Source: Actinomycetota bacterium
Lineage (GTDB): Bacteria; Actinomycetota; Acidimicrobiia; Acidimicrobiales; Ilumatobacteraceae
NCBI GenBank assembly: GCA_043747765.1
Contig: JAYTOM010000112.1
Coordinates: forward strand, 1 to 60,788
DNA length: 60,788 nucleotides
Reading direction: 5' to 3'
Part shown: positions 14,128-50,648 of the stretch, piece after piece
Layout of the letters: the number at the start of each line of letters is the position of its first letter
Numbering within the stretch: the first letter of the stretch is position 1
Notes under the pieces: generated by a model
What the model was told of the DNA's origin: nothing
The model's input: only the letters and a program-made list of their open reading frames with translations
Database searches by the model: none
Translations under genes and position numbers: made by a program

Positions 14128-14751
14128 ATGAAGTCGAGAATCGTCCTGGTCGGGTTCAGCGCGACAGCGCTGCTCGGACTGAGCGGGTGCGGGAGTTCGG
14201 CTGGTACGGGCGCCGCGCCGGCGACCACCATCCGACTCGGTACTCCGAGCTACCAGACCCTGTTACCGCAGGTCACCAGCACCCTTCCAGCTCAGACGGT
14301 CCCGGGCCAGGTGGTCGGAATCGTCCCCGGAGAGCAGACGCACACCGTCGTCAGTGGCGACTATCTGGTCAAGATTGCCAAGTCCTTCTGCACCACCGCT
14401 CAGAAGGTCGCCGACTACAACGCCTGGACCGACGGGATCACGCATCGACTGCAGCCGGGCCAGGTGATCAAGATCGCCGGCGGTTCCTGCGCACCCGGGA
14501 CCGGCGCGACCACCGTTGCCAACACCAACGCTCCGACTGCTGCGACGACGGTCACTCCACAGCGGACGACAACCACGTTCAATGCCAGCACGGGGGGCAC
14601 CTACACCGTCGTCGCTGGGGATTACCTCGGCAAGATCGCAACCAAGACCGGGTCGACGGTGGCCGGCATCGTCGCCGCCAACGGCTGGGCAGATTCGACG
14701 CACAACATCATCCCCGGTCAGACGATCAAGCTGCCCGCCAAGACCGGCTGA
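14128..14751 (+). CDS. lipoprotein with two LysM domains
   Basis: The signal peptide MKSRIVLVGFSATALLGLSGC carries a lipobox. There are two LysM repeats (HTVVSGDYLVKIAK..., YTVVAGDYLGKIAT...). The upstream part of track ORF 13753.. is out-of-gene. Confidence 0.8.
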   Translation: MKSRIVLVGFSATALLGLSGCGSSAGTGAAPATTIRLGTPSYQTLLPQVTSTLPAQTVPGQVVGIVPGEQTHTVVSGDYLVKIAKSFCTTAQKVADYNAWTDGITHRLQPGQVIKIAGGSCAPGTGATTVANTNAPTAATTVTPQRTTTTFNASTGGTYTVVAGDYLGKIATKTGSTVAGIVAANGWADSTHNIIPGQTIKLPAKTG

Positions 14752-14975
14752 ACTCTGCGCTCGGCTTCGGCAGTGAACTCATTGCCGACGAGATCGAGCC
14801 CGGGATTCGGATTGTTGGAGCGGTCAGACGGTGCAAGAAACACTCAAGTTCGACCACGACGCGCCGATCACTTCGGCGGCGGAAGAGCGAACGTGCTCGA
14901 TGCGACGGACCAGCGCTGCTGGATCGTTCGAGCTGGCAGATGTCCAGCTCGTTCCAAGGAAGAGGAACACCTCGA

Positions 14976-15332
14976 ATGAGCAAGATCCTGCACTGGTCCA
15001 TGATCGGTGTCCTGTCACTCGGCGGTCTCGCCGCGTGTGGCAGTGACAAGAAGAACGACACGGTCACGACGACGGCGGCCAGCACCGCCGGCACCGCCAG
15101 CACCGGTGCTACGCCAGCCGGCACGCTCTCGGAGTTCTGCGCCAAGACCGAGGCCCTCGGCGTCGACTATGCCGCAGCCCAGACCGGGACCGTGGCCGAC
15201 GATGTCAAGGCTGCCCTGATCGCCCGTGCGACCGCACTCGGCGAGGACCTCAAGGCGGCAATCATCGCCAGCCCCGCCGACAAGGATGCGCTCATCGCCT
15301 GCCTCGCCGCAGTCAAGACCGCAGGCGGCTGA
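14976..15332 (+). CDS. small Thr/Ala-rich lipoprotein, unknown function
   Basis: ATG 14976 follows an AAGGAAGAGGA RBS. MSKILHWSMIGVLSLGGLAACG contains a lipobox. Confidence 0.55.
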   Translation: MSKILHWSMIGVLSLGGLAACGSDKKNDTVTTTAASTAGTASTGATPAGTLSEFCAKTEALGVDYAAAQTGTVADDVKAALIARATALGEDLKAAIIASPADKDALIACLAAVKTAGG

Positions 15333-15398: not shown

Positions 15399-16433
15399 TC
15401 ACCCGAGGTCGGGCCAGCGGCGTTTCTGACGGCGACGGATGCCCATGTCGCCGAGCTGACGCTGCTCGGTCAATGACCACTCGCGACGCCAGCCGTTGTA
15501 CTCCGGGCCGGTCAGCTTCGGGTTCTTGCCTTCGGCTCGGTTGCGGCGAGCCGTCCAGTAGTCGGTCAGGCTCTCGTCGCCGAGCAGAGCAACGGCGGCC
15601 TCGATGCGCGCATTGAAACGGCGTGTGTTCTCGTCGGCACCGGCCAGCAGCGGATGACCGAAGATCACCGTGGTGCGTCCGGGCTTGGGCCGCTTCATCC
15701 CCTTGCCGAAGATCGGCCCCGTTCCGTCGATGAACATCGGCACCACTGGTGCGCCGGTTCGTGACGACAGATATGCCGCGCCACCTTTGAAGTCCTGGCC
15801 CCAGCCGTCGGGTGAGCGCCCACCCTCTGGGTAGATCAGCAGGCTCCAACCGTCGGCCATCAGATCGCGGATCTGGTCGGCCGACTTGCGGCCGGTGGAG
15901 TCGCGATCGATCGGCAGGGCGTTCATCGTCAGCGCGGCCGCATTGCCCTTGGCCTTGGTGGTGAAGAAGTAGTCGGCGGCCGCAGCGACCATCAGCTTGT
16001 GCCGCCACGGCTCGGGAATTGCATAGACGGACAGCGGCGTGTCGAGGTGGCTGTGATGATTCGGGGTGAAGATCAGCGGCGGGGGATTCTTGCGCGTGCG
16101 CAGATCCTCCAACCGATCAGCGCCCTTCACCGTCGGCGAGGCGATCCCCTTGATGAACAGCCTCATCGGCCCTTCGGTCCACAGCACGCGACCGAGGCGG
16201 GCAGGGTATTTGCGTGCCCATCCGGTCTCGAAATCGCCGAGCAACTTCGACGGTTCTTGCGATACGACGACGCCCTGCGGGACATTCGGCTTGCGGTACG
16301 GGAAACCCTTCGTCGACAAGGGTTTGGCGACCTTTGCGAGAGCCGATTCGACCGAGCCCGCCGCCCTCGCGGCGCGCTTGAGGTTGGCGACGTCGCGGAT
16401 CTTGTCGTCGCGCTTGCCGATCAGGGATGCCAT
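15399..16433 (-). CDS. lysophospholipid/1-acyl-sn-glycerol-3-phosphate acyltransferase family protein
   Basis: The H(X)4D motif ..PNHHSHLDTP.. and the ..IYPEGGRSPDG.. block are present. Confidence 0.85.
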   Translation of the reverse strand: MASLIGKRDDKIRDVANLKRAARAAGSVESALAKVAKPLSTKGFPYRKPNVPQGVVVSQEPSKLLGDFETGWARKYPARLGRVLWTEGPMRLFIKGIASPTVKGADRLEDLRTRKNPPPLIFTPNHHSHLDTPLSVYAIPEPWRHKLMVAAAADYFFTTKAKGNAAALTMNALPIDRDSTGRKSADQIRDLMADGWSLLIYPEGGRSPDGWGQDFKGGAAYLSSRTGAPVVPMFIDGTGPIFGKGMKRPKPGRTTVIFGHPLLAGADENTRRFNARIEAAVALLGDESLTDYWTARRNRAEGKNPKLTGPEYNGWRREWSLTEQRQLGDMGIRRRQKRRWPDLG

Positions 16434-16446
16434 CGTCAGCGACCCG

Positions 16447-18033
16447 TCACTTGACGTCGGCCACCAGGACCGGCGGAGTGTGGATGTGGGTGATCGTCGG
16501 CGTGGTGCCGACGACGTCGGAGGCGATCTCGAATGCGTCGTCCATCGTCGATGCCGGCGTGAACCCGAGCCGACGGACGGCCTTGACGTTGCCGCCGACG
16601 ATGATCACGCGACTGCAGTGCTGCATGCCGTGTGCGCCCCAGTACCACATGTAGAACGGGTGCACACCGTGGTAGGCGTAACTGGTGCGGTACAGGTGCT
16701 TGTACCACTCGTCCTCGGCGAAGCGCTTCTCGTACTTCTCGTGCATCACGTGCGGGTCGGTCGTCTCCGACAGCACCTGTTCGAAGAAGTCGATGTAGCT
16801 CGGGTGATGCACGGGGTGGAAGTCCCACGGGGTCGGGTGGGTCATGATCACGACGCCTCCCTCTTTGACGAGCGGCTTGCCCTTGTACATGTTGAATAGG
16901 TAGCCGAGTCCCATGCACATCACAAGGATCGGATTCATGATCGAGTTGACGTTGTACGGGCAGATGAACGGGATGCCCATCGTCAGGATGTCGGTCTGGC
17001 CTTGCACCTCGACGAGTTGCTGCTTCCACACGTTCTCGGTGGTCTGCTTGTGCACGGCCTCGACCTCGCCGGCGTGCACGCTGGTCATCTGATGCGGTGC
17101 TTCGATGCTGTGGAAGATGTTGCGGGCGATCCTGGAGGGCGTGCGCTTCAGGGCTTGCGACGAGGCCACGAAGCTGGCTCGGTCGCGGGCGTTCCACTCC
17201 CACTCGCGCTTCGACAGGAATCCGAACGGCTTCGGGAAGGTGTCGGTGTTCATCGTGGTCTCGATCTGAAAGACCTTGACGCCGCTGTCCACCATCACCT
17301 TGCCCATTCGCCAGTTGCTCTTGTGCAACTCGCTCTTGTGCTGATCCATGAAGCTGCGGGTCTGCTCCATCGTCTTCGGGTTGTGGTGGTGCCGCAGGCT
17401 CTTGTAGCTGCTGAGGCCGGTCGCGGTACTCTTCCAGCCACCGTCCATCGCGACGAGGTTGATGTTCACATAGACGAGCAGATCGCTCTCGGCCGCTCGC
17501 TTGTTGATCTCGACGTCTTCGCCGTGGGGGGTCTGACCGAGGTACTCGAGTTTGTCCGGATCCTCGGCATCGTGCTGATAGAGGAATCCCCGTGGTGCGA
17601 ATGCGTCGAAGACGCGGTCGCCGACAGCGTGACGCAGTTCGGCCTCGGTCATCCGCCGATGCAACGCCAACGCGGCGATGATGTGCACATCGTCCACGCC
17701 GGCGTCGGCGGCCATGTCCAGCACGGCTTCGATCACGCGCTGGCGGATGTCCGGCTTCGTCATCGGCGGCAGCGGCAGGCTGATGTCGTCGAACGCGATG
17801 GTCAACTTCATCCCTGGGAACAGCAACTCCGGCAACGGGTCGTGGTCGATCGGGTTGAGCAGGGCGTGCACGATCGAGCCGTCGATGTCCTTCAGCGCGT
17901 CCAATGGCTCGGGGGCATAGATGACGCGGCTGCGGCCGGCGGGCAGTTTCTCGAGGCTGTAGCCCTCGCCGCGCCAGAACAGGATCGGTGGAGTGTTTCG
18001 ATCCACCTCGAGGACGAATCCGGGACGAGGCAT
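16447..18033 (-). CDS. LarA-like (lactate racemase N-terminal domain/DUF2088) protein
   Basis: The track ORF was trimmed to ATG 18033 (MPRPGFVLEV..). ..IAFDDISLPLPP.., ..IIAALALHRRMT.. and ..MDGGWKSTATG.. match the LarA blocks, including a GGxK lysine. 1-nt TGATG overlap with the upstream ADH. Confidence 0.75.
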   Translation of the reverse strand: MPRPGFVLEVDRNTPPILFWRGEGYSLEKLPAGRSRVIYAPEPLDALKDIDGSIVHALLNPIDHDPLPELLFPGMKLTIAFDDISLPLPPMTKPDIRQRVIEAVLDMAADAGVDDVHIIAALALHRRMTEAELRHAVGDRVFDAFAPRGFLYQHDAEDPDKLEYLGQTPHGEDVEINKRAAESDLLVYVNINLVAMDGGWKSTATGLSSYKSLRHHHNPKTMEQTRSFMDQHKSELHKSNWRMGKVMVDSGVKVFQIETTMNTDTFPKPFGFLSKREWEWNARDRASFVASSQALKRTPSRIARNIFHSIEAPHQMTSVHAGEVEAVHKQTTENVWKQQLVEVQGQTDILTMGIPFICPYNVNSIMNPILVMCMGLGYLFNMYKGKPLVKEGGVVIMTHPTPWDFHPVHHPSYIDFFEQVLSETTDPHVMHEKYEKRFAEDEWYKHLYRTSYAYHGVHPFYMWYWGAHGMQHCSRVIIVGGNVKAVRRLGFTPASTMDDAFEIASDVVGTTPTITHIHTPPVLVADVK

Positions 18034-19244
18034 CAGTGCTTCTCCATCTTCTTCAGATCTGAGTGTGTCTCGCGAGGGTCGAAGGCGACCTTCACGGCGC
18101 CACGACGCCCGGCGGCGGCGGCGTGGGCAATGGCATCTTCGTAGTCGTCGAGTGGGTATGTGGCCGACACCAGCCGACCCATGTCGAGCGCGGTGACGGT
18201 CTCGATCGCGAGGTCGAACGTGCGCGCCGTGGTGCCGTCGGGCATCGTCTCGGTGCCGTAGGTGTACGAGCCGGAGATCGTCGTCTCGCGATGCCAGAGT
18301 CCGGTCAGATCGACCGTGACCTCGGCCGGCATGCCCATCAGGATCACGGTGCCGCGCGGCTTGGTGATCTGCAGGCACGATTCGATCGACCCACTGTTGC
18401 CGACGGCATCGATCGTCACGTGCGCGCCACCACTGAGGTAGTCGCCGATGACATGGCAGCCGACCGTGCGACGCACGGCGCGGGCCAGTTCTTTGGGCGC
18501 CACCACCTCGTCGGCGCCGAACGCTCGGGCGTACGACTGCTGATGCGGGTATCTGGCTCCGACGATGATGTGCGCGTGCGGGATGTACCGACGCAGGCCG
18601 GCGATCGCGCACAGGCCCATCGTCCCGGCTCCGAGCACGGCGATCACGGGGACGGCGACGTCGGCGATCGCGGGCCAGCACATCAGAGCGGTGTGGATGC
18701 CACCGGCCGCAGGCTCGATCATCACGGCAGCCTCGTCGCTCAGGTCGTCCGGAACCGTGTGGATCTGCGAGGAGTGTGCCTGGAAGTACGTGCTCCAGCC
18801 GCCACCTGTCGAGTGGCAGAAGCCGGTCTGGATACCCGGGTCGAGCGGGGGGAGAGCGAGGTGGGCGTAGTCGTCGCCGTCGCCGGGCGCTGCACCCGGA
18901 AAGGGCAGCGGGAAGCCCCGTGCCGCGTGGCCGAGGACCGGCTCGATGACCACGCGGGTGCCGTCCTGCAGCTCGCCGACCACCTCGTGGCCGGGCGTGA
19001 ACGGGAACGAGACGAGGTCGTCGAAGTAGGTCGACGCATGACCCTCGATTGTCGACAGATCACTCCCGCAGATACCGCTGAGCCGCGTCTTGACGACATG
19101 CCAACCATCGCCGAGCAGCTCTGGTGGATCGAGTGAGACGAGCTTGATCGGACCGACCCTGGCAGCGGCGGACGGGCTGACAGCCGAGGCCATCCGGGCC
19201 AATCCGAGCCTGGCGATGTTGCGGGAAACTTGCAGTGCTTTCAT
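18033..19244 (-). CDS. zinc-dependent alcohol dehydrogenase (MDR family)
   Basis: The ORF was trimmed to ATG 19244 (MKALQVSRN..). ..GICGSDL.., ..GHEVVGEL.. and ..VLGAGTMGL.. are present. TGATG overlaps occur at both ends. Confidence 0.85.
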   Translation of the reverse strand: MKALQVSRNIARLGLARMASAVSPSAAARVGPIKLVSLDPPELLGDGWHVVKTRLSGICGSDLSTIEGHASTYFDDLVSFPFTPGHEVVGELQDGTRVVIEPVLGHAARGFPLPFPGAAPGDGDDYAHLALPPLDPGIQTGFCHSTGGGWSTYFQAHSSQIHTVPDDLSDEAAVMIEPAAGGIHTALMCWPAIADVAVPVIAVLGAGTMGLCAIAGLRRYIPHAHIIVGARYPHQQSYARAFGADEVVAPKELARAVRRTVGCHVIGDYLSGGAHVTIDAVGNSGSIESCLQITKPRGTVILMGMPAEVTVDLTGLWHRETTISGSYTYGTETMPDGTTARTFDLAIETVTALDMGRLVSATYPLDDYEDAIAHAAAAGRRGAVKVAFDPRETHSDLKKMEKH

Positions 19245-21610
19245 CAGCCGCGGCCTCGCGTCAGCGACGTGCCGTTGAACATCCGTTTGCGCTCGCGTTC
19301 GCCGAGCATCGTCCCGATCGGCAGCAGTGGGCGCGGTCCGCCTGGCGCCTTGGACCAATCCTCGACAAGCCAGCCGCGTTTGCGGGCGATCGCCGCCAGA
19401 CGAGTCTCGGGGTTGACCGCGACTGGAAAGCCGACGCATTCGAGCATCGGCAGGTCGCTGGTGCTGTCGGCGTAGGCGATGCTCTCCTCGAGCAGCAGCC
19501 CCTCGGCCTTGCAGTAGTCGCTGAGGACTTGGGCGCGGGTTTCGCCTGTCGGTGGGACCTTGGCCAGTTCACCGCTGTAGGTGCCGTTGGGTCGTACGGT
19601 CATCTCGGCGGCGACGATCTCGTCGAACAATGGCTTCAAGCCGGCGACCGCGAAATCCATCGCCCCGGTGATCAGGATCGTGCGGTGGCCGAGCGCTCGG
19701 TGCTCGCGGACACGACGGATGCCGGCGGGGAAGCTCTTCGTGACGATCAACTGGGTCAGCAGTTCCTTGCTGTCCTCGGCGATCTGATCGACGGGTGCGT
19801 CCTCGTAGCGTCGGTAGAAAAAGCGCAGGAAGTCGCCGCGGTCCTTGCGGTCCATCGCCGAAAGGCTGGGGGCTTGAGCGAGCGTGCGGAGCACGTACCG
19901 GATCCGTTCTGGGGCATTCAGTCGTCGCGTCGCCAACCACGAGAAACTCTCCACGACATTGCTGCTGATCAGGGTGTTCTCTAGATCGAAGGCGGCGAGT
20001 TGTCGCTCTGGGGAGAGGATGCTGCGGCGCAGACGATCGGTGCGATCGTTGCGGTTCTTGCCCGGCTTGGTCTTCGCTCTGGCGTGGGTGACGATCGACG
20101 GGAGGTGGATCTCGGTGACGTAGAACGACCAGTCGACCGAACGCGGATCGAAGTTGAACCGAGCCTGATCGACGGCATCGAGGGTATCCCACATGCCGAG
20201 CAGGTTGTTCACCTGGTACAGCGCTTCGCACTCGGTGTACAGGCCGTACAGTTGAACGTATTCATAGGCGCGGTCGATGTCGTGTTTGCGTTCTTCCAGC
20301 TTCGCCGCCCACTCGGCCTGGGTGCCGCGCAACGGCAGCATCTGCAGTGCCTGCTCAGCGCGCGTGACCAGCATCTGGGCCCGCTTCAATTGCTGCTGCA
20401 CTTTGCCGCGCGCCGGGAACTTCCATTCCGGGACTTCGATTGGTTGACCCTCGGCGTCGTACAGCGGATGCTGGGTGAACCAGTCGCGGATGTAGTCGAC
20501 CATTGCCTGGTACTTCAGCGGGTTGACGCCACCACTGGCCACCTGCGTGATGCGCGGCGCGCTGGGGCCAACGGCGGCGACGGCGATGATCGAGGCAACG
20601 ACGATGTCGACCGGGATCACGTCGACCGTTCCCTCCGGCACGCCGGGGAACTGGGTCAGCAGACCGCGGGCATAGCTGAGGATGACCGGCTCGGCCATCC
20701 GGAATCCGCGGATCCAACCCGGACGTGGCTCTGACAGCGCCGATTCGATGATCGACGGGCGGACGATGTTGACGGCGATGTTGCCCTTCGACTCCATCAG
20801 CGCCTGTTCGCCGAGTGCCTTCGTGAACGCATACGCGTCCGGCCAGCCGACGCTGGCGGCGCGCGCCCGCCCGGCTTCGACCAACTCGTCGGTGACCCAG
20901 CGCTCACGCAGTTGTTCGGTCTTTGCAGCCAGAGCCGGCGCACCGGCAGCGCCGAGTTCTTTGATCGCGCTGGAGCGGAACTCGCGTAGCTTGTCCGGAA
21001 GACGGCTGGCTGCCTCGGCGTCGCTGCGTAGCCGGCGTGCCGACAGCACCTCCTTGCGCCAGTTCAGCCCGAGGTCGAACGGACCCTCGCTGACCAGTTC
21101 CTCCGGCGCGTTGCCGCGTCGATTGCCTGCCACGTAGCAGGTGCTGACGGTGACGAGATGCGGCGCGACGCCCAGCTTCTGTAGTGCCTCGGCGACACGC
21201 GTCGGGCCGAGCAGGTTGATCTCGACGGCTGTGTCGAGCGGTGAGTCGAACGCAACGGCGGCGGCGGAATGGATGATGGTATGGCACGAGGCGAGAATCA
21301 CCTGATCGGTGTCGTTCAACCCCAGCCCGTCGTTGCTGACGTCGCCGTTGATGGTCTGAACACGCCGGGCGACCATCTCGTCGAAGGTCTCGGCGGTGCC
21401 TGTCAGTTCTTCGCGCAGGCGGTCGAAGCAGTCGTTCTTGAAGATTTCGCGACGGGCTCGTTCCGGCGCGCCGCGCTTGCCGCCGCGGATCAGCAGGACG
21501 AGGTCGCACCCGGGAACACTGCGCAGCAACCGCTCGACGAGCGCTGTGCCGACGAAGCCGGTTGCGCCGGTGATGGCGATCCGCTTCCCGGCGAGTTGTT
21601 CGGCGATCAT
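19244..21610 (-). CDS. fatty acyl-CoA reductase (SDR, male-sterility type) fused to a C-terminal HAD-IB hydrolase domain
   Basis: The N-terminal part has ITGATGFVGTALVERLL, ..STCYVAG.. and YAFTKALGE (YxxxK). The C-terminal part has ..AAFDLENTLISSN.., ..ILITGAMDF.. and ..YADSTSDLPML.., the HAD motifs I-IV. An AAGAGGA RBS precedes the start. Confidence 0.85.
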   Translation of the reverse strand: MIAEQLAGKRIAITGATGFVGTALVERLLRSVPGCDLVLLIRGGKRGAPERARREIFKNDCFDRLREELTGTAETFDEMVARRVQTINGDVSNDGLGLNDTDQVILASCHTIIHSAAAVAFDSPLDTAVEINLLGPTRVAEALQKLGVAPHLVTVSTCYVAGNRRGNAPEELVSEGPFDLGLNWRKEVLSARRLRSDAEAASRLPDKLREFRSSAIKELGAAGAPALAAKTEQLRERWVTDELVEAGRARAASVGWPDAYAFTKALGEQALMESKGNIAVNIVRPSIIESALSEPRPGWIRGFRMAEPVILSYARGLLTQFPGVPEGTVDVIPVDIVVASIIAVAAVGPSAPRITQVASGGVNPLKYQAMVDYIRDWFTQHPLYDAEGQPIEVPEWKFPARGKVQQQLKRAQMLVTRAEQALQMLPLRGTQAEWAAKLEERKHDIDRAYEYVQLYGLYTECEALYQVNNLLGMWDTLDAVDQARFNFDPRSVDWSFYVTEIHLPSIVTHARAKTKPGKNRNDRTDRLRRSILSPERQLAAFDLENTLISSNVVESFSWLATRRLNAPERIRYVLRTLAQAPSLSAMDRKDRGDFLRFFYRRYEDAPVDQIAEDSKELLTQLIVTKSFPAGIRRVREHRALGHRTILITGAMDFAVAGLKPLFDEIVAAEMTVRPNGTYSGELAKVPPTGETRAQVLSDYCKAEGLLLEESIAYADSTSDLPMLECVGFPVAVNPETRLAAIARKRGWLVEDWSKAPGGPRPLLPIGTMLGERERKRMFNGTSLTRGRG

Positions 21611-21616
21611 TCCTCT

Positions 21617-21636
21617 TGTCTACCAGATGGTAGACA
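21617..21636. promoter_or_regulatory. TetR operator candidate: palindrome TGTCTACCA-GA-TGGTAGACA
   Basis: Perfect 9-bp arms fill most of the 26-bp spacer between the reductase ATG (21610) and the TetR GTG (21637). Confidence 0.55.
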
Positions 21637-22239
21637 GTGATCGTGACACGGCGGGCCAACACGAGGGCATCGATCCTGGAAGCCAGTGTCGATCTGTTCG
21701 GATCGCGAGGCTTCGGAGCAACGTCGCTCGACGACATCGCCGGCAAAGTGGGCGTGGCCAAACAGACGCTCCTGTACTGGTTCCCGTCGAAGGACGAGTT
21801 GCTCGACGCAGTCCTGGCCCAGACAGCCCTCGAGCTCGCGGCGGTGATCGAGGCCGCGGTGCGCGCCGCGCCGGACGATCCGTTGGCACGGGTCGAGGCT
21901 GTGGTCAAGGCCGTGTTCCGCCCTGCCGTGCGGCGCCCGGCGCTGCTCGGCCTGGTGCGCGAGGTCAGTCGTTTGTCGCCGGCTCACGCCGAGCGTTTGA
22001 CGCTGCAGGTTCAGCCGTTCGTTCGCCGAGCGATCGACTACCTCGACGAACAGATGGCGGCCGGTCGGCTCCGGCGCGCCGACCCGGGACTGGTCATCGC
22101 CCTCGCCTACGCCACGGTCACCGGCATCGCCACCGAGCCCGAGGCGCTACGCGCTGTCGAGTGGCCGGCGACGGCAACTGGCTTGCGCCGCCTGCGCAAC
22201 GAGTTGATCGCCTTCGTGCTCGCCGCCCTCCGCCCCTGA
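21637..22239 (+). CDS. TetR/AcrR family transcriptional regulator
   Basis: ..RASILEASVDLFGSRGFGATSLDDIAGKVGVAKQTLLYWFPSK.. is a TetR HTH. Confidence 0.88.
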   Translation: MIVTRRANTRASILEASVDLFGSRGFGATSLDDIAGKVGVAKQTLLYWFPSKDELLDAVLAQTALELAAVIEAAVRAAPDDPLARVEAVVKAVFRPAVRRPALLGLVREVSRLSPAHAERLTLQVQPFVRRAIDYLDEQMAAGRLRRADPGLVIALAYATVTGIATEPEALRAVEWPATATGLRRLRNELIAFVLAALRP

Positions 22240-32976: not shown

Positions 32977-34107
32977 TCAAGCAGTGAGTGCCAGCATCGG
33001 ATCGACATACGGCAGCGAGAGTGCTTCTGCGACGGGGGCATTGGTGACGTGACCGGCGACGGTGTTGACGCCGTGGACGAGCGCAGGATCGCGCCGCGCT
33101 GCGCCGCCGGGGCCGTGCAGGGCGACCTCGAGTTGGTACGGGAGCGTCGCATTGGTGAGCGCGTAGGTGCTCGTGTGCGGCACGGCACCTGGCATGTTGC
33201 CGACGCCGTAGTGCAGCACTCCGTGCAGCATGTAGACGGGGTCGGTGTGTGTTGTCTCGTGGATCGTCTCGATGCACCCGCCCTGGTCGATCGCGACATC
33301 GACGATGACAGCTCCGGGCTTCATGTTGCGGACCATGTCCGCGCTGACGACGACCGGTGCCCGACCGCCGGCCACGAGCACCGCACCGATGACCAGATCG
33401 GCATCGGCGACGTTGCGCTCGATCGCGCCGCGGTTGGAGGCAAGGGTCACGATTCGACCTTTCTGAATCTGGTCGACCCACCGCAGACGATCGAGATTCT
33501 TGTCGAACAGAACAACTTCGGCTTCCATCCCTGCAGCAATCCACGCCGAGTTCCATCCGACGTTCCCGGCGCCCAGCACCACGACTTTGGCAGGCCGAAC
33601 CCCAGGGGCACCGCCCATCAGCACACCGCGACCGCCATTGTGACGTTCGAGGTAGTGGGCACCCATCTGCGGCGCCAGTCGCCCGGCGACCTCGCTCATC
33701 GGAGCCAGGAGCGGCAACGCCCCTGACTCGCTCTGCACCGTTTCGTACGCGATGCCGGTGGTTCCGGCCGCGAGTAAGGCCGTGGCGACCTCTGGGTACG
33801 CCGCCAGATGCAGATACGTGAACAGCGTCAGGTCGGCGCGCAGGAATTCGAACTCCTCGACCTTCGGCTCCTTGACTTTGACGACCATCTGTTGCGACCA
33901 TGCGTCGGCCGCTGTCGGCACGATCGTCGCTCCGGCTGCGGTGTAGTCCGCATCGGAGAAGCTCGCACCCTCACCGGCGTGGCTCTCGATGAACACCTCG
34001 ATCCCATGGCGCTCGAACTCCCGCACACCGTCGGGTGTCATCGCCACCCGATGTTCGGCGGTCTTGATCTCCTTGGGAACACCGACAGATGTGATCGTTG
34101 CGCTCAT
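32977..34107 (-). CDS. ald: alanine dehydrogenase
   Basis: ..[21 protein letters not shown].. and ..[14 protein letters not shown].. are present. Confidence 0.92.
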
Positions 34108-34132
34108 CCGTTCATCGTGTCACCTTTCGCCT

Positions 34133-34186
34133 GTCCAACCGTCCAACCGTCCAACCGTGCCGACCAACCGTCCAACCGTCCGAGCC
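34133..34186. repeat. tandem octamer array (GTCCAACC)x3 - GTGCCGACCAACC - GTCCAACC - GTCCGAGCC
   Basis: Read directly from the sequence. It occupies half of the 101-bp ald / aldehyde-DH divergent spacer. Confidence 0.9.
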
Positions 34187-34208
34187 GGCGGAGTTATATT
34201 GCGGGGCC

Positions 34209-35636
34209 ATGAAGACGTTCAAGAATTTCATCAACGGCACCTACATCGACACGGGAGAAGGACGCACGTCTGCGGTCATCGACCCGACGACGGGAGAGCA
34301 GTACGCCGAGGCTGCGCTGTCGGGACCTGCCGATGTGGACATGGCCATGAAGGCCGCCGCAGCGGCGTTCGATGGATGGCGTGATTCGACGCCATCGGAA
34401 CGCTCGTTGGCGTTGATCCGGATTGCCGATGCGGTCGAAGCCCGTGCGGAGGAGTTGATTGCGCGCGAGGTCGAGAACACTGGCAAGCCGATCGCCCTGA
34501 CCCGCAGCGAGGAGATCCCTCCGATGGTCGATCAGATTCGCTTCTTCGCTGGCGCTGCTCGTCACCTTGAGGGCAAGGCTGCTGCCGAGTACATGCGCGG
34601 TATGACCAGCTTCGTGCGTCGCGAACCAGTTGGTGTGTGTGCGCAGGTGGCGCCGTGGAACTACCCGATGATGATGGCTGTGTGGAAGTTCGCGCCCGCT
34701 CTCGCTGCTGGTAACACCGTGGTCCTCAAGCCGAGCGACACCACTCCGGCGACGGCTGGACTGTTGGCCGAGATCGCCGCCGAGTTCCTGCCGCCTGGCG
34801 TCTTCAACGTGATCTGTGGTGATCGTGACACCGGCCGGGCGATGGTCGTGCACGAAACACCGGCGATGATCAGCATCACGGGCTCTGTCCGCGCCGGAAT
34901 GGAGGTTGCCGAGGCTGCGTCGCACAGCCTCAAGCGGCTCCATCTCGAACTCGGGGGCAAAGCGCCCGTCGTCGTCTTCGACGACGCCGACATCGCTGCA
35001 GCAGCCGAGGGCATTTCGACCGCTGGGTTCTTCAACGCCGGACAGGATTGCACGGCAGCGACACGTGTCATTGTCGCTCCACGCATCTACAGGGACTTCG
35101 TCGCCGCATTGACCGAGGCCGCAGCTGGGATCAAGACCGGTATGCCGGACGACGAAGACGTTCTCTACGGTCCGGTCAACAACGCCGCCCAACTGGCTCG
35201 AGTCAGTGGTTTCCTCGACCGCACGCCGGACCATGCAACGGTCTCCAATGGTGGTCATCGCGTCGGCGTCTCGGGCTACTTCTACGAGCCGACGGTCGTC
35301 TCCGACCTCCGTCAGGACGACGAGATGATCCAGAACGAGGTCTTCGGGCCCGTCATCACCGTCCAGCAGTTCAGCGATGAGGACGAGGCTGTGCGGTGGG
35401 CGAACGGTGTGGAATACGGGCTGGCGTCCTCGGTCTGGACCAAGGACTTCGGGCGCGCGATGCGGATGTCGAAGCGGCTCGATTTCGGCTGCGTGTGGAT
35501 CAACACGCACATTCCGCTCGTGGCGGAGATGCCTCACGGCGGGTACAAGAAGAGTGGTTACGGCAAGGACCTGTCGTCCTATGCACTCGACGATTACACG
35601 CGCATCAAACACGTGATGGCGAACATCGAATCCTGA
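34209..35636 (+). CDS. NAD-dependent aldehyde dehydrogenase (aminobutyraldehyde/betaine-aldehyde DH-like)
   Basis: The ORF was trimmed to ATG 34209 ([14 protein letters not shown]..). ..VAPWNYP.., ..LELGGKAP.. and ..[13 protein letters not shown].. (catalytic Cys) are present. Confidence 0.9.
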
Positions 35637-36360
35637 ACCGAACGACTCCAGGTGAACGTAGGTGGCAGTCCAAGCTGGCACTCAGTTGAGGATGTCGCGC
35701 GCCGACGATGACGACTGTGCCGAGCGAAGCCAGCGACTGCACCGCCATGATCGTTTTCGCCCGTGCGGTCAGTGGCAGAGCATCCGTCGGGCTGAACGCC
35801 GTCGAGTTGGTCAGTGACAAGTACAGGTAATCGATGAAACGGGGCGACCATCGCGTTGCCGACGAGTTCGGATTCTCCATCTGCGGGAACAGGAAGTCCG
35901 GCTGGTCGTGGTCGACCGTGCATCGTTTGACTGGACCGCCACGGTCGATCTCCTAGTACAAGAGCCCGAACGCCGTGACCGCGGTGAACCAGACGGCAAT
36001 CGCGGAATAGATCAGCGAGCGGCCATTGATCCGATTTCCCTGGCGGAGCAAGTCGTGGATCAGAATTCCGAGTGTCGTGCTATTGGCGACGATCAAGATT
36101 CCGGCCAGGCTGAGTGCGAAGAAACGGACGTCCTTCGTCTCGGCCGTCAATTTCGACGGACCGACGACGATCAGGGTGAGCAATACGGCCGCTTCGATCG
36201 CTGGGATCAGCCATGGCGGCCCGATTGTCAAACGATCCGGCAGCAGCACCTGAAGGACCAAGACCGCGACGACCGAGATCGCCGCTGGAAATCGAGTCTC
36301 GCCGGGGGACACGAATCCCCATGCTGCGTCGTTCTCACGATCGAACGGAGTGTCGTTCAT
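35605..36360 (-). pseudogene. DUF1345-like membrane protein interrupted by an in-frame TAG (35953..35955)
   Basis: ORFs 35953..36360 and 35605..35880 are in the same frame. Reading through gives ..AFGLLY-*-EIDRGGPV..DFLFPQME..WSPRFIDYLYLSLTNSTAFSPTD... ATGA overlap with the upstream aminotransferase stop. Confidence 0.6.
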
Positions 36361-37763
36361 CGTGACTGAAATGCGTCCCATGCATCGGTGAACACCCGAA
36401 TCAGTGTGTCGCCGATGAACCGCAACTCGTCCGGACCGCAGGTCAGCGTCGGGGCCAGGACAACCACTGGATCGGCTCGGTCGTCCGCCCTGCAGAACAG
36501 CCCGGCTTTGTACAATGCCGGGGACAACACGTCGCGCAACAGCCAATCGCATTCGTCGTCGGTGAAGGTGGTTCGTCGTTCCTTCTCCTTGATCAATTCG
36601 GCAACGCGGAAATACCCACAGCCGCGTACCTGGCCGACAATCGGCAGTTCCGCGATTCGGGCCATCACCTCGTCGAACAGGGGCTCGTTGGCGAGCACGT
36701 TGGCGTTGATGCCCTCCCGCTCCATCAGGTCGATGTTGGCGAGGGCAACCGCGCAGCTGACCGGATGCCCGCCGAATGTGAGTCCGTGGAGGAACACCCG
36801 TCCCCCCTCGAGGAACGGCGCGGCGAGACGATCGCTGGCGATGACGCCGCCGAGGGGTGCGTAGCCACTGGTCACACCCTTGGCGAACACGATCATGTCC
36901 GGCTGGTACCCGAAGCGATCGCACCCGAACCAGTGGCCCAGCCTCCCGAAGGCGCAGATCACTTCGTCGCTGACGAGCAACACACCGTGCCGGTCACAGA
37001 TCTCGCGGACGCGTCGCCAATAGCCGGGTGGGGGGACAAGCGCCCCGCCGGTGTTCTGGACGGGTTCGAGAATGACGCAGGCAACCGTGTCCGGACCCTC
37101 CATCACGATTCTCGCTTCTATGTCGTCTGCGCATGCCAAGGTGCAGGCGCCGGCCGACGCGCACATACTGCAGCGGTACTGATTGGTGTTGGCGACCTTC
37201 ACCGCGCCGGGAAGGAGCGGCTCCCACGGGTTCTTGATCGCCGGGATACCGGTGATCGACAGCGCTCCCAGCGTCGTGCCGTGGTACGCGTAGTGGCGAC
37301 TGATCACCTTGCGGCGACCGGGTTGTCCGATCGCGGCGAAGTACTGGACGGCCAACTTCCATGCGCTCTCCACCGCTTCGCCGCCACCGGTTGTGAAGAA
37401 CACCCGGTTCAGATCGCCCGGAGCAAGTGCGGCGAGCCGCTCCGCCAATCGGATCGCCGGTTCGTGACCGAAACTCCACAGGGGAAAGAAGCCCAGGGTG
37501 GCCGCTTGGCGGGTCGCGGCTTCAGCCAATTCGTGGCGACCGTGACCGACCTGCACGGTGAACAGACCGGAGAGCCCGTCGAGCAGCCGATGGCCGTTCT
37601 GGTCGAAGATGAAGTTGCCCTCGCCACGCACGATGATGGGCAAGGGCTCCCGCTGGAAAGCGTCCATTTTCGTGAAATGGCCCCACAGATGTCGACGCGC
37701 TGCGGTCTGAAGGTCGGTGGTTACGGTTCCGTCGGTGGCGTCCATCGACTCGGATACTGCCAC
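36357..37763 (-). CDS. class-III (omega) aminotransferase, putrescine/GABA:pyruvate type
   Basis: ..FFTTGGGEAVESAWKLA.. and ..LLVSDEVICAFGRLGHWFG.. are present. GTG start. Confidence 0.9.
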   Translation of the reverse strand: MAVSESMDATDGTVTTDLQTAARRHLWGHFTKMDAFQREPLPIIVRGEGNFIFDQNGHRLLDGLSGLFTVQVGHGRHELAEAATRQAATLGFFPLWSFGHEPAIRLAERLAALAPGDLNRVFFTTGGGEAVESAWKLAVQYFAAIGQPGRRKVISRHYAYHGTTLGALSITGIPAIKNPWEPLLPGAVKVANTNQYRCSMCASAGACTLACADDIEARIVMEGPDTVACVILEPVQNTGGALVPPPGYWRRVREICDRHGVLLVSDEVICAFGRLGHWFGCDRFGYQPDMIVFAKGVTSGYAPLGGVIASDRLAAPFLEGGRVFLHGLTFGGHPVSCAVALANIDLMEREGINANVLANEPLFDEVMARIAELPIVGQVRGCGYFRVAELIKEKERRTTFTDDECDWLLRDVLSPALYKAGLFCRADDRADPVVVLAPTLTCGPDELRFIGDTLIRVFTDAWDAFQSR

Positions 37764-37912
37764 TGATCGTGTTGTTTCTGTGTGAACAACCCTTCTGACA
37801 CTTGCCGCGAGGTGCGGCCTATGACACGCTCACAGCCGTACTGATCGATGGAATTGTCGGCAGGGACGGGGGCGGTCCACTAGAACAGAGCTGTGAGAAA
37901 GAGGCGCCAGGA

Positions 37913-39034
37913 ATGAGCGATGAACGGGGCAGCGTCGAACTCGTCGACGTCACCAAACGGTTCGGCTCGATGCTCGCCGTCGACAAACTGACTCTGGAGG
38001 TCCACGCCGGTGAATTTCTGTCGCTGCTCGGTCCCAGCGGATGTGGCAAGACCACGACCCTGCGGATGCTGGCCGGATTCGATCAGCCGGACGAGGGATT
38101 CATTCGGATCAGTGGTTCCTACGTGCAAGGGATTCCGCCGTACAAGCGTGATGTGAACACCGTGTTCCAGCAGTATGCGTTGTTCCCGCACATGACTGTC
38201 TCGGAGAATGTCGCCTACGGACTCCGCCAGAAGAAAGTACCGAGGGGTGAGATCTCCGGTCGTGTGGCCGAAGCTCTCGACATGGTCAAGATGACCAAGC
38301 TCGCCGACCGCAAACCGCGTCAGATGTCGGGTGGGCAGCAGCAGCGAGTTGCCGTCGCTCGGGCGCTGGTCAATCGGCCGAGCGTACTTCTGCTCGATGA
38401 ACCGCTCGGCGCGTTGGATCGCAAGCTCCGTGAGGAGATGCAGATCGAGCTGAAACTGTTGCAGAGTCAACTCGGGATCACGTTCGTCTTCGTCACCCAC
38501 GATCAGGAAGAAGCGATGGGCATGAGCGACCGGATCGCAATCATGCTCGACGGACACATCGAGCAACTCGCCGATCCGGAGAGCGTCTACGAGCGGCCGG
38601 ATTCCGCCTTCGTCGCCGGCTTCATCGGTCGGAACAACTTCTGGCAGGGCATCTCGACCGGGAACGGCGTGCAGGCCATTGACGGCACGATCTTCGCGTC
38701 ATCGACTCCCGAGGAGCGGGTTGCCAAGGGCGACCAGGCGCTGGCTGCGGTTCGACCGGAGTCGATTCAACTCAGCGCCCAAGACCCGGGGCTGACTGCC
38801 AACGTCATCCACGGTAGCGTCGCGGGGGTCTCGCACTACGGCGACGTGCTGCAGTACGTGATCCGCACGGCGACCCGCGATGTCATTTCGCTTCTGCCGC
38901 GCCAAGGTGCGCTCCGTTTGGCCCCGGGAGACCCTGTGTGGTGCCATTGGCCGGCCGCCGATGTGTATCAGTTCTCGGCTGACCAAGCCGATCTCGTGAT
39001 CCGCGATCCCGCCGAGGATGACATCGCCTCATGA
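37913..39034 (+). CDS. potA: spermidine/putrescine ABC transporter ATP-binding protein
   Basis: The ORF was trimmed to ATG 37913. It has Walker A GPSGCGKTT, the signature MSGGQQQRVAVARAL, Walker B LLLDEP and a TOBE-like C-terminus. Confidence 0.9.
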   Translation: MSDERGSVELVDVTKRFGSMLAVDKLTLEVHAGEFLSLLGPSGCGKTTTLRMLAGFDQPDEGFIRISGSYVQGIPPYKRDVNTVFQQYALFPHMTVSENVAYGLRQKKVPRGEISGRVAEALDMVKMTKLADRKPRQMSGGQQQRVAVARALVNRPSVLLLDEPLGALDRKLREEMQIELKLLQSQLGITFVFVTHDQEEAMGMSDRIAIMLDGHIEQLADPESVYERPDSAFVAGFIGRNNFWQGISTGNGVQAIDGTIFASSTPEERVAKGDQALAAVRPESIQLSAQDPGLTANVIHGSVAGVSHYGDVLQYVIRTATRDVISLLPRQGALRLAPGDPVWCHWPAADVYQFSADQADLVIRDPAEDDIAS

Positions 39035-39086
39035 CGCGAACACGCCAACATCTCATCATCTCCAGGCGTTCAGAAAGGAACCAACC

Positions 39087-40403
39087 ATGAGTCGTCGTAC
39101 GTTTCGTCAGAGCGATACACCACGGATCCTGATGTCACAAGAGGCTGCCCAGCGTTTAGCCCATTCGATCAGTCGACGGCGATTTCTGGCCATGTCGGGA
39201 GGAGCGGCTGCAGCAGCGGCCCTCGCGGCTTGCGGTAGCGATTCCAAGTCCTCGTCGGCGCCAACGACGGGCGGCGGCACTGCGACGACAGGCAGCAGCG
39301 CGACGACGTCGGCAGGGAGCACCGCGACGACGTCGGCAGGGAGCACCGCGACGACGGGCGGCAGTGCGACGTCATCGGCAGGCAGCACAGCGACGACTGC
39401 AGCCGCTGGCAACTTCTCCAAGAACATCAACATGTTCACATGGGCCGAGTACGACGACCCCGACCTGCTCAAGAAGTGGGGCGACATCAACCTGACGATC
39501 TTCAACTCGAACGAGGAGGCGATCCAGAAGTTGGTCCAAGGTGGTGGGTCGTCCGGTTTCGACATGGTGGTGCCGACGGGCGCGTACATCCCGCAATTGG
39601 CCAAGGCGGGTCTCCTGCTGCCCCTCGACAAGACCAAGATCCCCAACTTCTCCAACCTGGATGCGGCGTACGCCAATCAGAGTTGGGATCCCAACAACAA
39701 ATACAGCGTGTGCAAGAACTGGGGCACGACCGGCTGGGTCTACGACACCAAGGTGGTCAAGACCGAGATCAAGACGTGGAGCGATTTCATCAAGGCTGCC
39801 CAAACGGATGCGAGCGGCCAGACCAGCGTGCTGGACACTGCGCCGAACCTGTGCGGCATGTATTTCTGGGCAAATGGGATCGACTGGACAACCGAAAAGG
39901 CGGCCGACCTCGATGCTTGCGAGAAATTTCTGGTCGATGACTTCGCCAGTCATTTGAAGGCGTTCGACTCGTACCCCGGCATCAACTTGACGCAGGGCAA
40001 TTATGCGCTGTCGATGGTATGGAACGGTGACGCCCGTCAGGGGCTGATTGCTGTTCAGGCAGCTGGTGACAAGGTTTCGGAATACAAATGGGGGCTCGGT
40101 GCGCCACAGACGGAATTGTGGATGGACAACTGGTGCATCCTCAAGGAGGCAAAGAACGTCGACGCCTCCTACGATTTCATCAACTTCATCCTCGACCCGA
40201 AGAACAGCATCACCGACCTGAAGTTCCACGGCTACAACACGGGCATCAAAGGTGTCGAGCCGCTCGCCGGGGACATTCCGTTCAAGGACATGGTTTTCTT
40301 CACCGATGAGCAGGTCAAGACGTTCCGGTCCGGTACCGTCAACAACGCTCAGGACCGATTGGTCTCGATCTACAGCAAGGTCAAGGCCAAGGCCGGCGGC
40401 TGA
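39087..40403 (+). CDS. potD: polyamine-type ABC substrate-binding lipoprotein (PotD/PotF family)
   Basis: ATG 39087 follows a GAAAGGAA RBS. There is a twin-arginine-like SRRRFLAMSGG..LAACG lipobox, then a Thr/Ser/Ala/Gly linker, then a PBP2 fold. Confidence 0.8.
   Translation: MSRRTFRQSDTPRILMSQEAAQRLAHSISRRRFLAMSGGAAAAAALAACGSDSKSSSAPTTGGGTATTGSSATTSAGSTATTSAGSTATTGGSATSSAGSTATTAAAGNFSKNINMFTWAEYDDPDLLKKWGDINLTIFNSNEEAIQKLVQGGGSSGFDMVVPTGAYIPQLAKAGLLLPLDKTKIPNFSNLDAAYANQSWDPNNKYSVCKNWGTTGWVYDTKVVKTEIKTWSDFIKAAQTDASGQTSVLDTAPNLCGMYFWANGIDWTTEKAADLDACEKFLVDDFASHLKAFDSYPGINLTQGNYALSMVWNGDARQGLIAVQAAGDKVSEYKWGLGAPQTELWMDNWCILKEAKNVDASYDFINFILDPKNSITDLKFHGYNTGIKGVEPLAGDIPFKDMVFFTDEQVKTFRSGTVNNAQDRLVSIYSKVKAKAGG
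39301..39348 (+). repeat. perfect 2 x 24-bp tandem repeat inside the SBP linker (TTSAGSTA x2), with degenerate copies on both sides
   Basis: CGACGACGTCGGCAGGGAGCACCG occurs twice in tandem. Confidence 0.85.
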
Positions 40404-40405
40404 AG

Positions 40406-41362: not shown

Positions 41363-42225
41363 CAAGCGTTGCCCCTCTCCCACAATCGACGACGGCCCGA
41401 ATGCGAGTTCGGCTCGCCAAGGCACTGCTGCCCGGCTGGAGTGCCATCGTCATCCTGTTCCTGTTCACCCCGATCTTCTTTCTGATCGCGATGTCGTTCA
41501 ACGATTTCAAGACGATTTTCAAGTGGACAAAGTTCTCCACCCACTGGTGGGGCCAGATGTTCAGCAACACCACCATGGTCGACGCTGTCGTGACGTCGCT
41601 CAAGGTCGCAGTGATCAGCACGATCCTCGCTGTGGTGCTCGGCACCTTGTCCGGCATCGCTCTCGCCAGAAAGCCCGGTCGGTGGACCGTTGGCTTCGTT
41701 GCCATCGTGCTGCTGATCCTCGTCACTCCCGAGATCGTCGACGGTGCCGGTCAACTCAGCTGGTTCGTCAAGCTGGGTGGGGTGTTCCGAGAAGGGATCA
41801 CGCCGATCGTGCTGGTCCACACCGTGTTCAGTTCGGCGGTCGTCACGCTCATCGTGCGGGCCCGAGTCTCCGGCATCGATGCGCGGCTGGAGGAAGCAGC
41901 GGCCGACCTGTTCGCGACACCGACCCGGGCGTTCATCCAGATCACTCTGCCGCTCGTGATGCCGGCGGTGCTGTCAGGAGCAATGCTGTCGTTCACGCTC
42001 AGTCTCGACAACGTCGTGGCCACCAGCTTCGTCAGTCCTGCTGGCAGCACGACATTCCCGAACTACGTGTTCGGCCTGTCCGGCGGAATCATCCGGCCGG
42101 AGGTGGCTTCGATGTCGACCGTGTTCATCGGCATCACTCTCGTTTCCATCGTGCTCGTCGCGCTCCTCCTTCGCAAACAAGGTGAGTCCGGTGCCGAGAT
42201 CGCGACGACGTTCACCGGTAACTGA
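41359..42225 (+). CDS. potC: ABC transporter permease (PotC-like)
   Basis: ATGA overlap with the upstream gene. EAA-like loop ..LEEAAADLFATPTRAFIQITLP.. Confidence 0.85.
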   Translation: MTSVAPLPQSTTARMRVRLAKALLPGWSAIVILFLFTPIFFLIAMSFNDFKTIFKWTKFSTHWWGQMFSNTTMVDAVVTSLKVAVISTILAVVLGTLSGIALARKPGRWTVGFVAIVLLILVTPEIVDGAGQLSWFVKLGGVFREGITPIVLVHTVFSSAVVTLIVRARVSGIDARLEEAAADLFATPTRAFIQITLPLVMPAVLSGAMLSFTLSLDNVVATSFVSPAGSTTFPNYVFGLSGGIIRPEVASMSTVFIGITLVSIVLVALLLRKQGESGAEIATTFTGN

Positions 42226-42227
42226 GG

Positions 42228-43562: not shown

Positions 43563-43574
43563 CGTTTGCCGATC

Positions 43575-50632: not shown

Positions 50633-50648
50633 GTTTGCCCTGTGGATA

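Follow-up and report, generated by a model that had tools for sequence, protein, structure and literature searches.

A conserved operon of Acidimicrobiia with homology to the myxobacterial elb genes, and its LarA homologue as a candidate in ether-lipid formation

The genes elbABCDE of Myxococcus xanthus (MXAN_1531 to MXAN_1527; Lorenzen et al. 2014, as reviewed in PMC9131029 and PMC13012113) are the closest described relatives of the operon that is analysed here. According to these reviews, disruption of elbD strongly reduces the alkyl and vinyl ether lipids, i15:0 aldehyde was detected only with elbD intact, and no fatty alcohol was seen. Reviews up to 2026 give no function for ElbC. Independently, MXAN_1529 has been listed in group 15 of the LarA homologues (LarAH; Desguin et al. 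2020, PMC7583248), and in the open-access literature we found no paper joining "elbC" with "DUF2088" or "lactate racemase". We studied a stretch of 60,788 nt from a member of the Ilumatobacteraceae (contig JAYTOM010000112.1, assembly GCA_043747765.1), in the following called the window. It carries four genes, encoding a fatty acyl-CoA reductase fused to a HAD-IB domain (FAR::HAD), a zinc alcohol dehydrogenase (Zn-ADH), a LarA homologue and a PlsC-type acyltransferase. We regard it as probable, if only narrowly so, that this TetR-controlled and translationally coupled operon is an actinobacterial, "unbundled" elb cluster, the likely product of which would be a 1-O-alkyl(-2-acyl)-glycerol(-phosphate) lipid. 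This ether-lipid reading is supported by homology but not proven.

All LarA reactions characterised so far are racemisations or epimerisations of hydroxyacids, that is, isomerase reactions, and their chemistry consists of a transient oxidation of the C2 hydroxyl group which is then re-reduced. It was suggested by authors of the LarA field that homologues with only one of the two catalytic histidines might move the hydride elsewhere. In Table S1 of Desguin et al. 2020 (PMC7583248) the function entry for group 14 is "unknown", and its neighbours are COG0204 (PlsC), COG0560 (HAD) and COG1063 (Zn-ADH) with 88% each and COG3320 with 50%. Group 15 has COG0451 (x1.5), COG0560 and COG1022 as neighbours; the HAD group COG0560 is a neighbour in 88% of group 14 and in 100% of groups 15 and 16, and in actinobacteria the HAD domain forms a fusion with FAR. 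The LarA homologue of the window is a group 14 member, and this published neighbour profile fits the operon. Because the gene association is already contained in the table of 2020 and in an NCBIfam model, the operon has to be seen as a variant of a known system. Two further observations concern the same table: COG1063 is mislabelled there as "phosphoserine phosphatase", and Frankia has a second paralogue group, LarAH16, which also lies next to PlsC and HAD genes, and in which the tether lysine of the cofactor is replaced by glycine (PMC7583248).

The genes of the operon and their domains, the assignment of which is unambiguous, are the following.
19244-21610, minus strand: FAR::HAD fusion, 788 amino acids (aa)
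20036-21610, minus strand: FAR domain, aa 1-525 of the fusion; NAD_binding_4 (2.5e-54) and Sterile
19244-20035, minus strand: HAD-IB domain, aa 526-788 of the fusion; PF12710 (5.5e-23), TIGR01488
18033-19244, minus strand: Zn-ADH, 403 aa; Pfam domains ADH_N and ADH_zinc_N
16447-18033, minus strand: LarA homologue, group LarAH14, 528 aa; Lar_N (PF09861, 2e-38)
15399-16433, minus strand: PlsC/AGPAT-type acyltransferase, 344 aa; Acyltransferase (PF01553, 2.9e-15)

Read directly, the stop codon of FAR::HAD overlaps the start codon of the Zn-ADH gene at 19244 (GGC TGATG AAA), the stop codon of the latter overlaps the start of the LarA homologue at 18033 (CAC TGATG CCT), and the TGA of the LarA homologue is separated by 13 nt from the ATG of the acyltransferase gene. 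A preliminary description of this DNA, made from its letters alone, had reported just these four co-directional genes with two TGATG overlaps and a 13-nt gap, and the motifs FDLENT, GGWK and H(X)4D named in it are located in the translations where it had placed them. The operon is flanked by housekeeping genes, with gltB and gltD at one end and, at the opposite end, genes for Ddl, a Mur ligase and an MFS transporter. A scan with the sigma-70 consensus returned no promoter, and predicted terminators were no commoner than in shuffled sequences. Among the approximately 45 open reading frames (ORFs) of the whole window that were scanned with Pfam, none encodes an alkyl-dihydroxyacetone phosphate (alkyl-DHAP) synthase (FAD_binding_4 or FAD-oxidase_C). 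The canonical route via this enzyme (AGPS) was therefore rejected, as the window is without the FAD-linked oxidase. AMP-binding and PP-binding domains were likewise found neither in the four operon proteins nor elsewhere in the window.

The M. xanthus locus encodes a short-chain dehydrogenase/reductase (SDR), a HAD protein, the Lar_N protein MXAN_1529, the 1470-aa ElbD and a further SDR. Since the Lar_N gene lies inside elbABCDE, ElbC is a LarA homologue. ElbD combines NAD_binding_4, Sterile, AMP-binding, PP-binding and Acyltransferase domains. In pairwise comparisons the LarA homologue of the window is 49% identical to ElbC over 523 aa (E 0.0), the FAR domain is 29% identical to residues 9-539 of ElbD over 554 columns (5e-48), the HAD domain is 32% identical to ElbB (5e-34) and the acyltransferase is 31% identical to residues 1230-1415 of ElbD (2e-17), while the Zn-ADH has no match among the Elb proteins. 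As judged from these alignments, four of the five parts of the operon are homologous to ElbB, ElbC and ElbD. Both systems consist of tightly packed co-directional genes for a FAR, an AGPAT-type acyltransferase, a HAD protein and a LarA homologue, and neither operon includes an alkyl-DHAP synthase. They differ in how the domains are joined: ElbD of M. xanthus unites FAR and acyltransferase with an acyl-AMP ligase and an acyl carrier protein (ACP), and HAD is a protein of its own there, whereas in the window the FAR is fused to the HAD domain and the acyltransferase is separate. Furthermore, the oxidoreductases are the SDRs ElbA and ElbE in the one case and a non-homologous zinc enzyme of the medium-chain dehydrogenase/reductase (MDR) type in the other, and the divergent TetR gene is a feature of the window operon.

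To judge the conservation of the gene set, relatives of the LarA homologue were collected by a contig scan with a cross-phylum alignment, using one genome per GTDB species, and at least 573 genomes were matched. The best 80 of these at least 573, all of them Acidimicrobiia, provide depth rather than breadth and were searched by tblastn with the window proteins; breadth beyond the Acidimicrobiia comes from contigs found with ElbC, the Rubrobacter protein and two other relatives as queries. The 80 loci contain the LarA homologue in 80, PlsC in 78, HAD in 72, Zn-ADH in 71, FAR in 67 and TetR in 55 cases. The order TetR / FAR::HAD - Zn-ADH - LarA homologue - PlsC is constant over these loci, with absences found mostly at contig ends. 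The same four-gene order recurs in a more distant actinobacterial metagenome-assembled genome (MAG; L085), and one metagenomic contig repeats the order elbA to elbE. Ddl and Mur ligase genes are conserved as neighbours of the cluster in related loci, which points to vertical inheritance. The preliminary description had proposed a survey of the co-occurrence of the four genes, and this survey establishes the set as a conserved unit and not a chance neighbourhood. Within it the LarA homologue is the best-conserved and slowest-evolving gene: identities over the 80 loci are 70-96% for this protein, 45-88% for the Zn-ADH and 37-86% for PlsC, and the closest relative among the matches listed is a protein of an Acidimicrobiales MAG with 96% identity.

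The Zn-ADH gene is absent from eight otherwise intact clusters (L030, L035, L036, L048, L049, L053, L064 and L074), in all of which the LarA homologue follows immediately upon FAR::HAD; Ca. Microthrix and the sponge symbiont Ca. Poriferisocius are among the carriers of these clusters. A ninth locus without a match (L069) lies on a short contig, the 5' end of which is just upstream of the LarA-like gene. A replacement of the missing enzyme by an SDR was rejected, because the ten loci that were inspected (L001, L083 and the eight without Zn-ADH) gave no ElbA or ElbE match within +-10 kb. The eight intact clusters indicate that the Zn-ADH is accessory and that the invariant core consists of FAR::HAD, the LarA homologue and the acyltransferase.

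The assignment of the LarA homologue to its family is given by the NCBIfam model NF052592, "NPN-dependent hydroxyacid isomerase, LarAH14/15/16 family" (NPN, nickel-pincer nucleotide), which it matches with 901.8 bits at a cut-off of 740 (query 7-529, model 1-520), and by 72% identity to YM304_22240 of Ilumatobacter coccineum, a group 14 member (Desguin et al. 2020, PMC7583248). An AlphaFold (AF2) model calculated from an alignment of 37 sequences out of three phyla has a pLDDT of 92.9 and a pTM of 0.91, and all 19 significant PDB matches found with it by Foldseek belong to the LarA family. The best of them are 9q3k and 9q3j, with TM-scores of 0.78/0.85 to 9q3k and of 0.63/0.76 to 5huq. On the basis of this model we are confident that the protein adopts the two-domain LarA fold. 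The GGWK block is found at aa 198-201 (nt 17431-17442). The active-site residues were mapped by a HMMER alignment, with residue roles from PMC12611868 and conservation taken over the same 37 sequences; they are given below for LarA_Lp, LarA_Sp and the protein of the window.
Ribose-binding Asp: LarA_Lp D72, LarA_Sp D73, window D83; invariant
Catalytic His: LarA_Lp H108, LarA_Sp H115, window H125; invariant
Residue replacing the second catalytic His: LarA_Lp H174, LarA_Sp N185, window N192; at least 90% conserved
Cofactor tether Lys: LarA_Lp K184, LarA_Sp K195, window K201; invariant
Ni-ligand His: LarA_Lp H200, LarA_Sp H211, window H217; invariant
Active-site Tyr: LarA_Sp Y307, window Y360; invariant
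Active-site His: LarA_Sp H401, window H458; invariant

Thus the cofactor-binding residues K201, H217 and D83, the loss of which on alignment had been named in the preliminary description as an argument against its proposal, are retained, and the exchange of Arg75 for Leu86 departs from the pattern. At this position group 14 has L or I (Desguin et al. 2020, PMC7583248). His174 corresponds to Asn192 in our HMMER alignment and to a gap in the alignment of Desguin et al. (PMC7583248). In addition, Lys298 of LarA is replaced by Asn and His306 of LarA_Sp by Pro359. The loss of the equivalents of Arg75, His174 and Lys298 indicates that the protein is not a hydroxyacid racemase, and a LarAH14 protein from Frankia was inactive in seven hydroxyacid reactions even with added NPN; a function as lactate or 2-hydroxyacid racemase was rejected on these grounds.

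LarA_Sp and LarA_Bw of the single-histidine LarA subfamily (9q2u, 9q3k, 9q3j; PMC12611868) are the best solved match (E 1.1e-31, at the TM-scores given above for 9q3k). They share the replacement of His174 by Asn and the active-site set of Asp, His, Lys, His, Tyr and His, and NPN is covalently bound in LarA_Sp (PMC12611868). However, the identity is only about 21%, their K76 and H306 are Leu and Pro in the protein of the window, and their gene context is glycolysis and sugar metabolism, not lipid metabolism. The sister subfamily with a single catalytic His (group 17) neighbours the genes for triosephosphate isomerase (TPI) and glyceraldehyde-3-phosphate dehydrogenase (GAPDH) and co-purifies with a phosphorylated ligand. 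Together with the type of the Zn-ADH described below, this analogy makes a glycerol-phosphate-type substrate plausible for the LarA homologue of the operon.

The FAR domain has the Rossmann motif GATGFVG and the catalytic motif YAFTK and matches the fatty acyl-CoA reductase structure 7eoz with 4.1e-62. In the HAD domain, motifs II (ITGAMD) and IV (DSTSD) are present, and motif I reads FDLENT (aa 541-546, nt 19973-19990), with Glu at Asp+2 and hence outside the DxDx(T/V) pattern. The Glu in place of the second Asp had been pointed out in the preliminary description, and it turned out to be kept: FDLE[NH]T is found in 68 of 68 FAR::HAD fusions of Acidimicrobiia, whereas the FAR::HAD of Rubrobacter and ElbB of M. 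xanthus have the canonical FDVDGT. From this comparison of sequences, the Glu is a lineage-specific conserved variant at the position of the general acid/base and not a decayed site. Enolase-phosphatase E1 also has D-x-E, so that phosphatase activity of the HAD domain would be compatible with the Glu. The Zn-ADH possesses the motifs CGSD, GHE, IEPAAGG and GAGTMG, including those for the catalytic zinc, and is without a Cys4 structural-zinc lobe. With NADP-ketose reductase (1e3j) and sorbitol dehydrogenase (1pl6) as its nearest solved relatives, it classifies by sequence as a zinc MDR of the C2-polyol/ketose (polyol-dehydrogenase) type. In the acyltransferase, HHSHLD (HX4D, aa 126-131) and EGGRS are found, and the PlsC structure 5kym is matched with 2.7e-08.

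Outside the Acidimicrobiia the most informative locus is that of Rubrobacter radiotolerans (CP007514.1; L083 5841-11581), with the order PlsY - FAR::HAD - Zn-ADH - LarAH. A Rubrobacter-like contig (L084 4554-11578) contains the same genes, with protoglobin and MarR genes between those for the ADH and the LarA homologue. As in the window, FAR::HAD fusion, Zn-ADH and LarAH (55% identity) stand in the same order. In contrast to the window, PlsY is found upstream, tightly or overlappingly coupled to FAR::HAD, no PlsC follows downstream, HAD motif I is canonical, and no divergent TetR gene was seen. Sinninghe Damste et al. (2023) state in their title that the membranes of Rubrobacterales are dominated by mixed ether/ester polar lipids. 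The Rubrobacter cluster thus joins the core of the window operon to an order with such membranes. A putative operon "resembling" elb has reportedly been noted in this order, and R. radiotolerans is said to be among the species studied.

Three other systems can be compared. The eukaryote-type route (FAR, GNPAT, AGPS and acyl/alkyl-DHAP reductase), which M. xanthus also has (MXAN_1676 to MXAN_1674), resembles the operon in the alcohol or aldehyde supplied by a FAR, in a glycerone- or glycerol-phosphate backbone, in the reduction of a C2 carbonyl group and in an acyltransferase, but the cluster of the window has a LarA homologue and no FAD-dependent alkyl-DHAP synthase. Ger of the anaerobic Ger/PlsA route also makes bacterial sn-1 alkyl ethers, but it reduces an existing ester, is unrelated in sequence and is not encoded in the window. 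The NPN-dependent aldo-keto reductase NphT is an example of nickel-pincer hydride shuttling beyond racemisation; however, it has a TIM-barrel fold, acts on sugars and is likewise not encoded in the window.

A pathway can be proposed as follows. The FAR domain would reduce acyl-CoA or acyl-ACP to a fatty aldehyde or alcohol. The LarA homologue might then act on a glycerol-phosphate-type substrate by oxidising its hydroxyl group at C2, with the hydride held on the nickel-pincer nucleotide. Passing this hydride to the hemiacetal or oxocarbenium formed with the fatty aldehyde would yield 1-O-alkyl-DHAP in a net redox-neutral reaction; if the hydride went back to C2 instead, the product would be 1-O-alkyl-glycerol 3-phosphate (1-O-alkyl-G3P), and in either case the LarA homologue would replace the absent alkyl-DHAP synthase. 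In an AGPS-like variant, 1-acyl-G3P could be transiently oxidised, the acyl group exchanged for a fatty alcohol and C2 re-reduced. The operon-linked PlsY of Rubrobacter and the dispensable Zn-ADH make us lean towards the LarA homologue itself restoring the C2 alcohol; where the Zn-ADH is present, it may reduce the C2 ketone. The PlsC-type enzyme would acylate, and the HAD-IB domain would remove the phosphate, its exact substrate being the least certain step. That ElbC and LarAH14 act as nickel-pincer "ether synthases", transferring the hydride of glycerol C2 to a hemiacetal or oxocarbenium in one redox-neutral step, is a tentative proposal that we hold to be possible but doubtful.

The non-canonical ether or alkyl glycerolipid pathway suggested in the preliminary description gains from the elb homology and from the conservation of the unit, and the step given to each enzyme stays conjectural. 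Of the enzyme set that it had likened to the ether-lipid route, FAR, HAD and acyltransferase match Elb proteins, and the accessory Zn-ADH does not. The placing of the LarA-like protein in the position of an alkyl-DHAP synthase agrees with the ElbC homology and the absence of such a synthase from the window, and the ether-forming role as such is a conjecture.

Several points weigh against the ether-lipid reading. Ether-forming chemistry is without precedent in the LarA family, and we know of no report of ether lipids from the carriers Acidimicrobiia, Frankia, Kribbella and Nocardioides. As had been noticed before, larB, larC and larE are missing: no AIRC/LarB, DUF111/LarC or LarE-type proteins were detected by Pfam among the ORFs of the window, nor were these genes found within +-10 kb of the M. 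xanthus or Rubrobacter loci. In place of Arg75 or K76, to which the phosphate of the cofactor and the carboxylate of the substrate bind, the protein has Leu86. The cluster of the window is also without the acyl-activating ligase and ACP domains of ElbD and without the SDRs ElbA and ElbE. Concerning the genetics of M. xanthus, the review describes insertions in elbA, elbB, elbD and elbE, with elbC not among them, and the phenotype of the elbB insertion was put down to polarity. In some elb-like clusters of sponge symbionts the only homologues present are those of elbD and elbB, which suggests that the LarA homologue may not be obligatory, and ether lipids are not detectable in Pontiella although it carries homologues of elbD.

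The last observation, that elbD homologues are not always predictive of ether lipids, could be taken to mean that the operon builds or remodels a non-ether lipid from the fatty alcohol or aldehyde, for example wax-type esters, alkyl phosphates, long-chain 1,2-diol lipids or an acylated hydroxy-lipid, with the LarA homologue only isomerising or epimerising a hydroxyl group of the lipid or of a polar precursor. A FAR with an acyltransferase and a phosphatase would also fit wax or neutral-lipid synthesis, the characterised LarA enzymes are all isomerases, and most of the carrier taxa are without reported ether lipids. However, we consider this unlikely: the sole genetic data on a homologous cluster concern ether lipids, Rubrobacter with the same core is dominated by them, a simple stereo-inversion does not go well with the absence of one catalytic His, and the cluster includes no WS/DGAT-type wax synthase. 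If, on the other hand, ether lipids are made, the LarA homologue might still not be the ether-former and might not use nickel; the bond would then be formed by FAR and acyltransferase or by an unlinked enzyme, and the LarA homologue would be an accessory protein for substrate supply, such as the interconversion of G3P and DHAP, a scaffold or a regulator. The missing larBCE genes in the window and in the M. xanthus and Rubrobacter flanks, the change of the cofactor-phosphate-binding Arg/Lys to Leu, the loss of the tether Lys in the Frankia paralogue of group 16 and the elb-like clusters without elbC would all suit such a role. Yet it is the slowest-evolving gene of the cluster, in the identity range given above as compared to that of PlsC, the tether Lys, the Ni-ligand His and the catalytic His of its product do not vary over three phyla, no other component is shared by all the architectures seen, and no other ether-forming candidate is encoded, so that we rate an accessory role as somewhat less likely again.

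A further possibility concerns stereochemistry, which had been raised in the preliminary description as well: the LarA homologue could act on the C2 stereocentre of glycerol, for example by converting G3P to glycerol 1-phosphate (G1P) via enzyme-bound DHAP, leading to lipids of unusual configuration. Transient oxidation and re-reduction of a C2 hydroxyl is exactly what LarA enzymes do, and the ether lipid TG-1 of M. xanthus is named as a rac/3-alkyl glycerol in the review. But for inversion an acid/base is required on either face, Asn replaces the second His in at least 90% of the alignment, and the FAR domain would be left without a role, all of which makes this explanation very improbable.

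Two features next to the operon bear on its regulation.
21637-22239, plus strand: TetR-family regulator, 200 aa, GTG start; TetR_N 2.8e-14
21617-21636, no strand assigned: operator-like palindrome TGTCTACCA-GA-TGGTAGACA, read directly

Only 26 nt (21611-21636) separate the start codons of FAR::HAD and TetR, and this gap is mostly filled by the palindrome, which consists of two perfect 9-nt arms around two central non-palindromic nt (9+2+9). A core CTACCA-NN-TGGTAG is present in the same TetR/FAR gap in about 40 of 52 related loci, which makes the palindrome a genuine operator candidate, and a TetR homologue is divergent from FAR in 55 of the 80 loci, the remainder being mostly contig ends. The divergent TetR gene with a perfect operator that had been described from the letters alone is thus borne out in its arms and by the retention of the core. 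Because the palindrome ends at the base directly before the GTG, the TetR mRNA is probably leaderless, and the short distance between the start codons leaves room for the two promoters only in overlap with the operator or within the adjacent coding sequences. The regulator has a weak NCBIfam similarity to lipid-responsive TetR proteins such as FasR (2.9e-12). TetR would bind to the conserved palindrome and probably let go on binding a lipid-derived ligand.

The operon bears on two questions, namely how the alkyl ether bond is formed in aerobic bacteria without alkyl-DHAP synthase, and what role LarA homologues play that have no second catalytic His. With LarAH14 as the best-conserved gene and a candidate for the missing ether-forming step, two literatures are connected. 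If it were an ether synthase, the LarA family would gain its first reaction other than a racemisation and membrane-lipid synthesis its first nickel enzyme, and it would supply the missing ether-forming step of an aerobic AGPS-independent pathway in Myxococcota, Rubrobacteria, Acidimicrobiia and many other Actinomycetota. Relatives of the LarA homologue occur in at least 573 species-level genomes, including those of abundant freshwater, soil, activated-sludge (Microthrix) and sponge-symbiont (Ca. Poriferisocius) Acidimicrobiia, so that, if the proposal is true, the sources of those non-isoprenoid alkylglycerols that serve as biomarkers in the environment would have to be reassigned. With four separate proteins and no megasynthase the system is simpler than its myxobacterial counterpart and therefore convenient for reconstitution.

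Some other regions of the window may be mentioned. An ORF at 14187-15332 (plus strand) converges on the PlsC gene and is gene-like only in its last ~115 codons; its 3' end resembles a small lipoprotein-like gene with the signal MSKILHWSMIGVLSLGGLAAC. As a fifth member of the operon this ORF was rejected, having no Pfam match and no homologue in 86 related loci. The only Rfam match is one tRNA. This tRNA-Val(cac) (45285-45358) has a phage-type integrase (45410-46522) directly behind it, and then come a reverse-transcriptase-like short ORF (47865-48449) and a resolvase (50691-51398); in this region and the lower-GC DNA that extends to ~58 kb the GC content falls to 0.59-0.61, and several ORFs have no Pfam match. 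The region 45285-51398 looks like a tRNA-integrated mobile element. Finally, the genes at 32977-44498 encode an alanine dehydrogenase, an aldehyde dehydrogenase, a class-III aminotransferase, an ABC importer (ATPase, solute-binding protein and two permeases), a flavin amine oxidase and a D-2-hydroxyacid dehydrogenase, a run which looks like a cluster for amine or polyamine utilisation.

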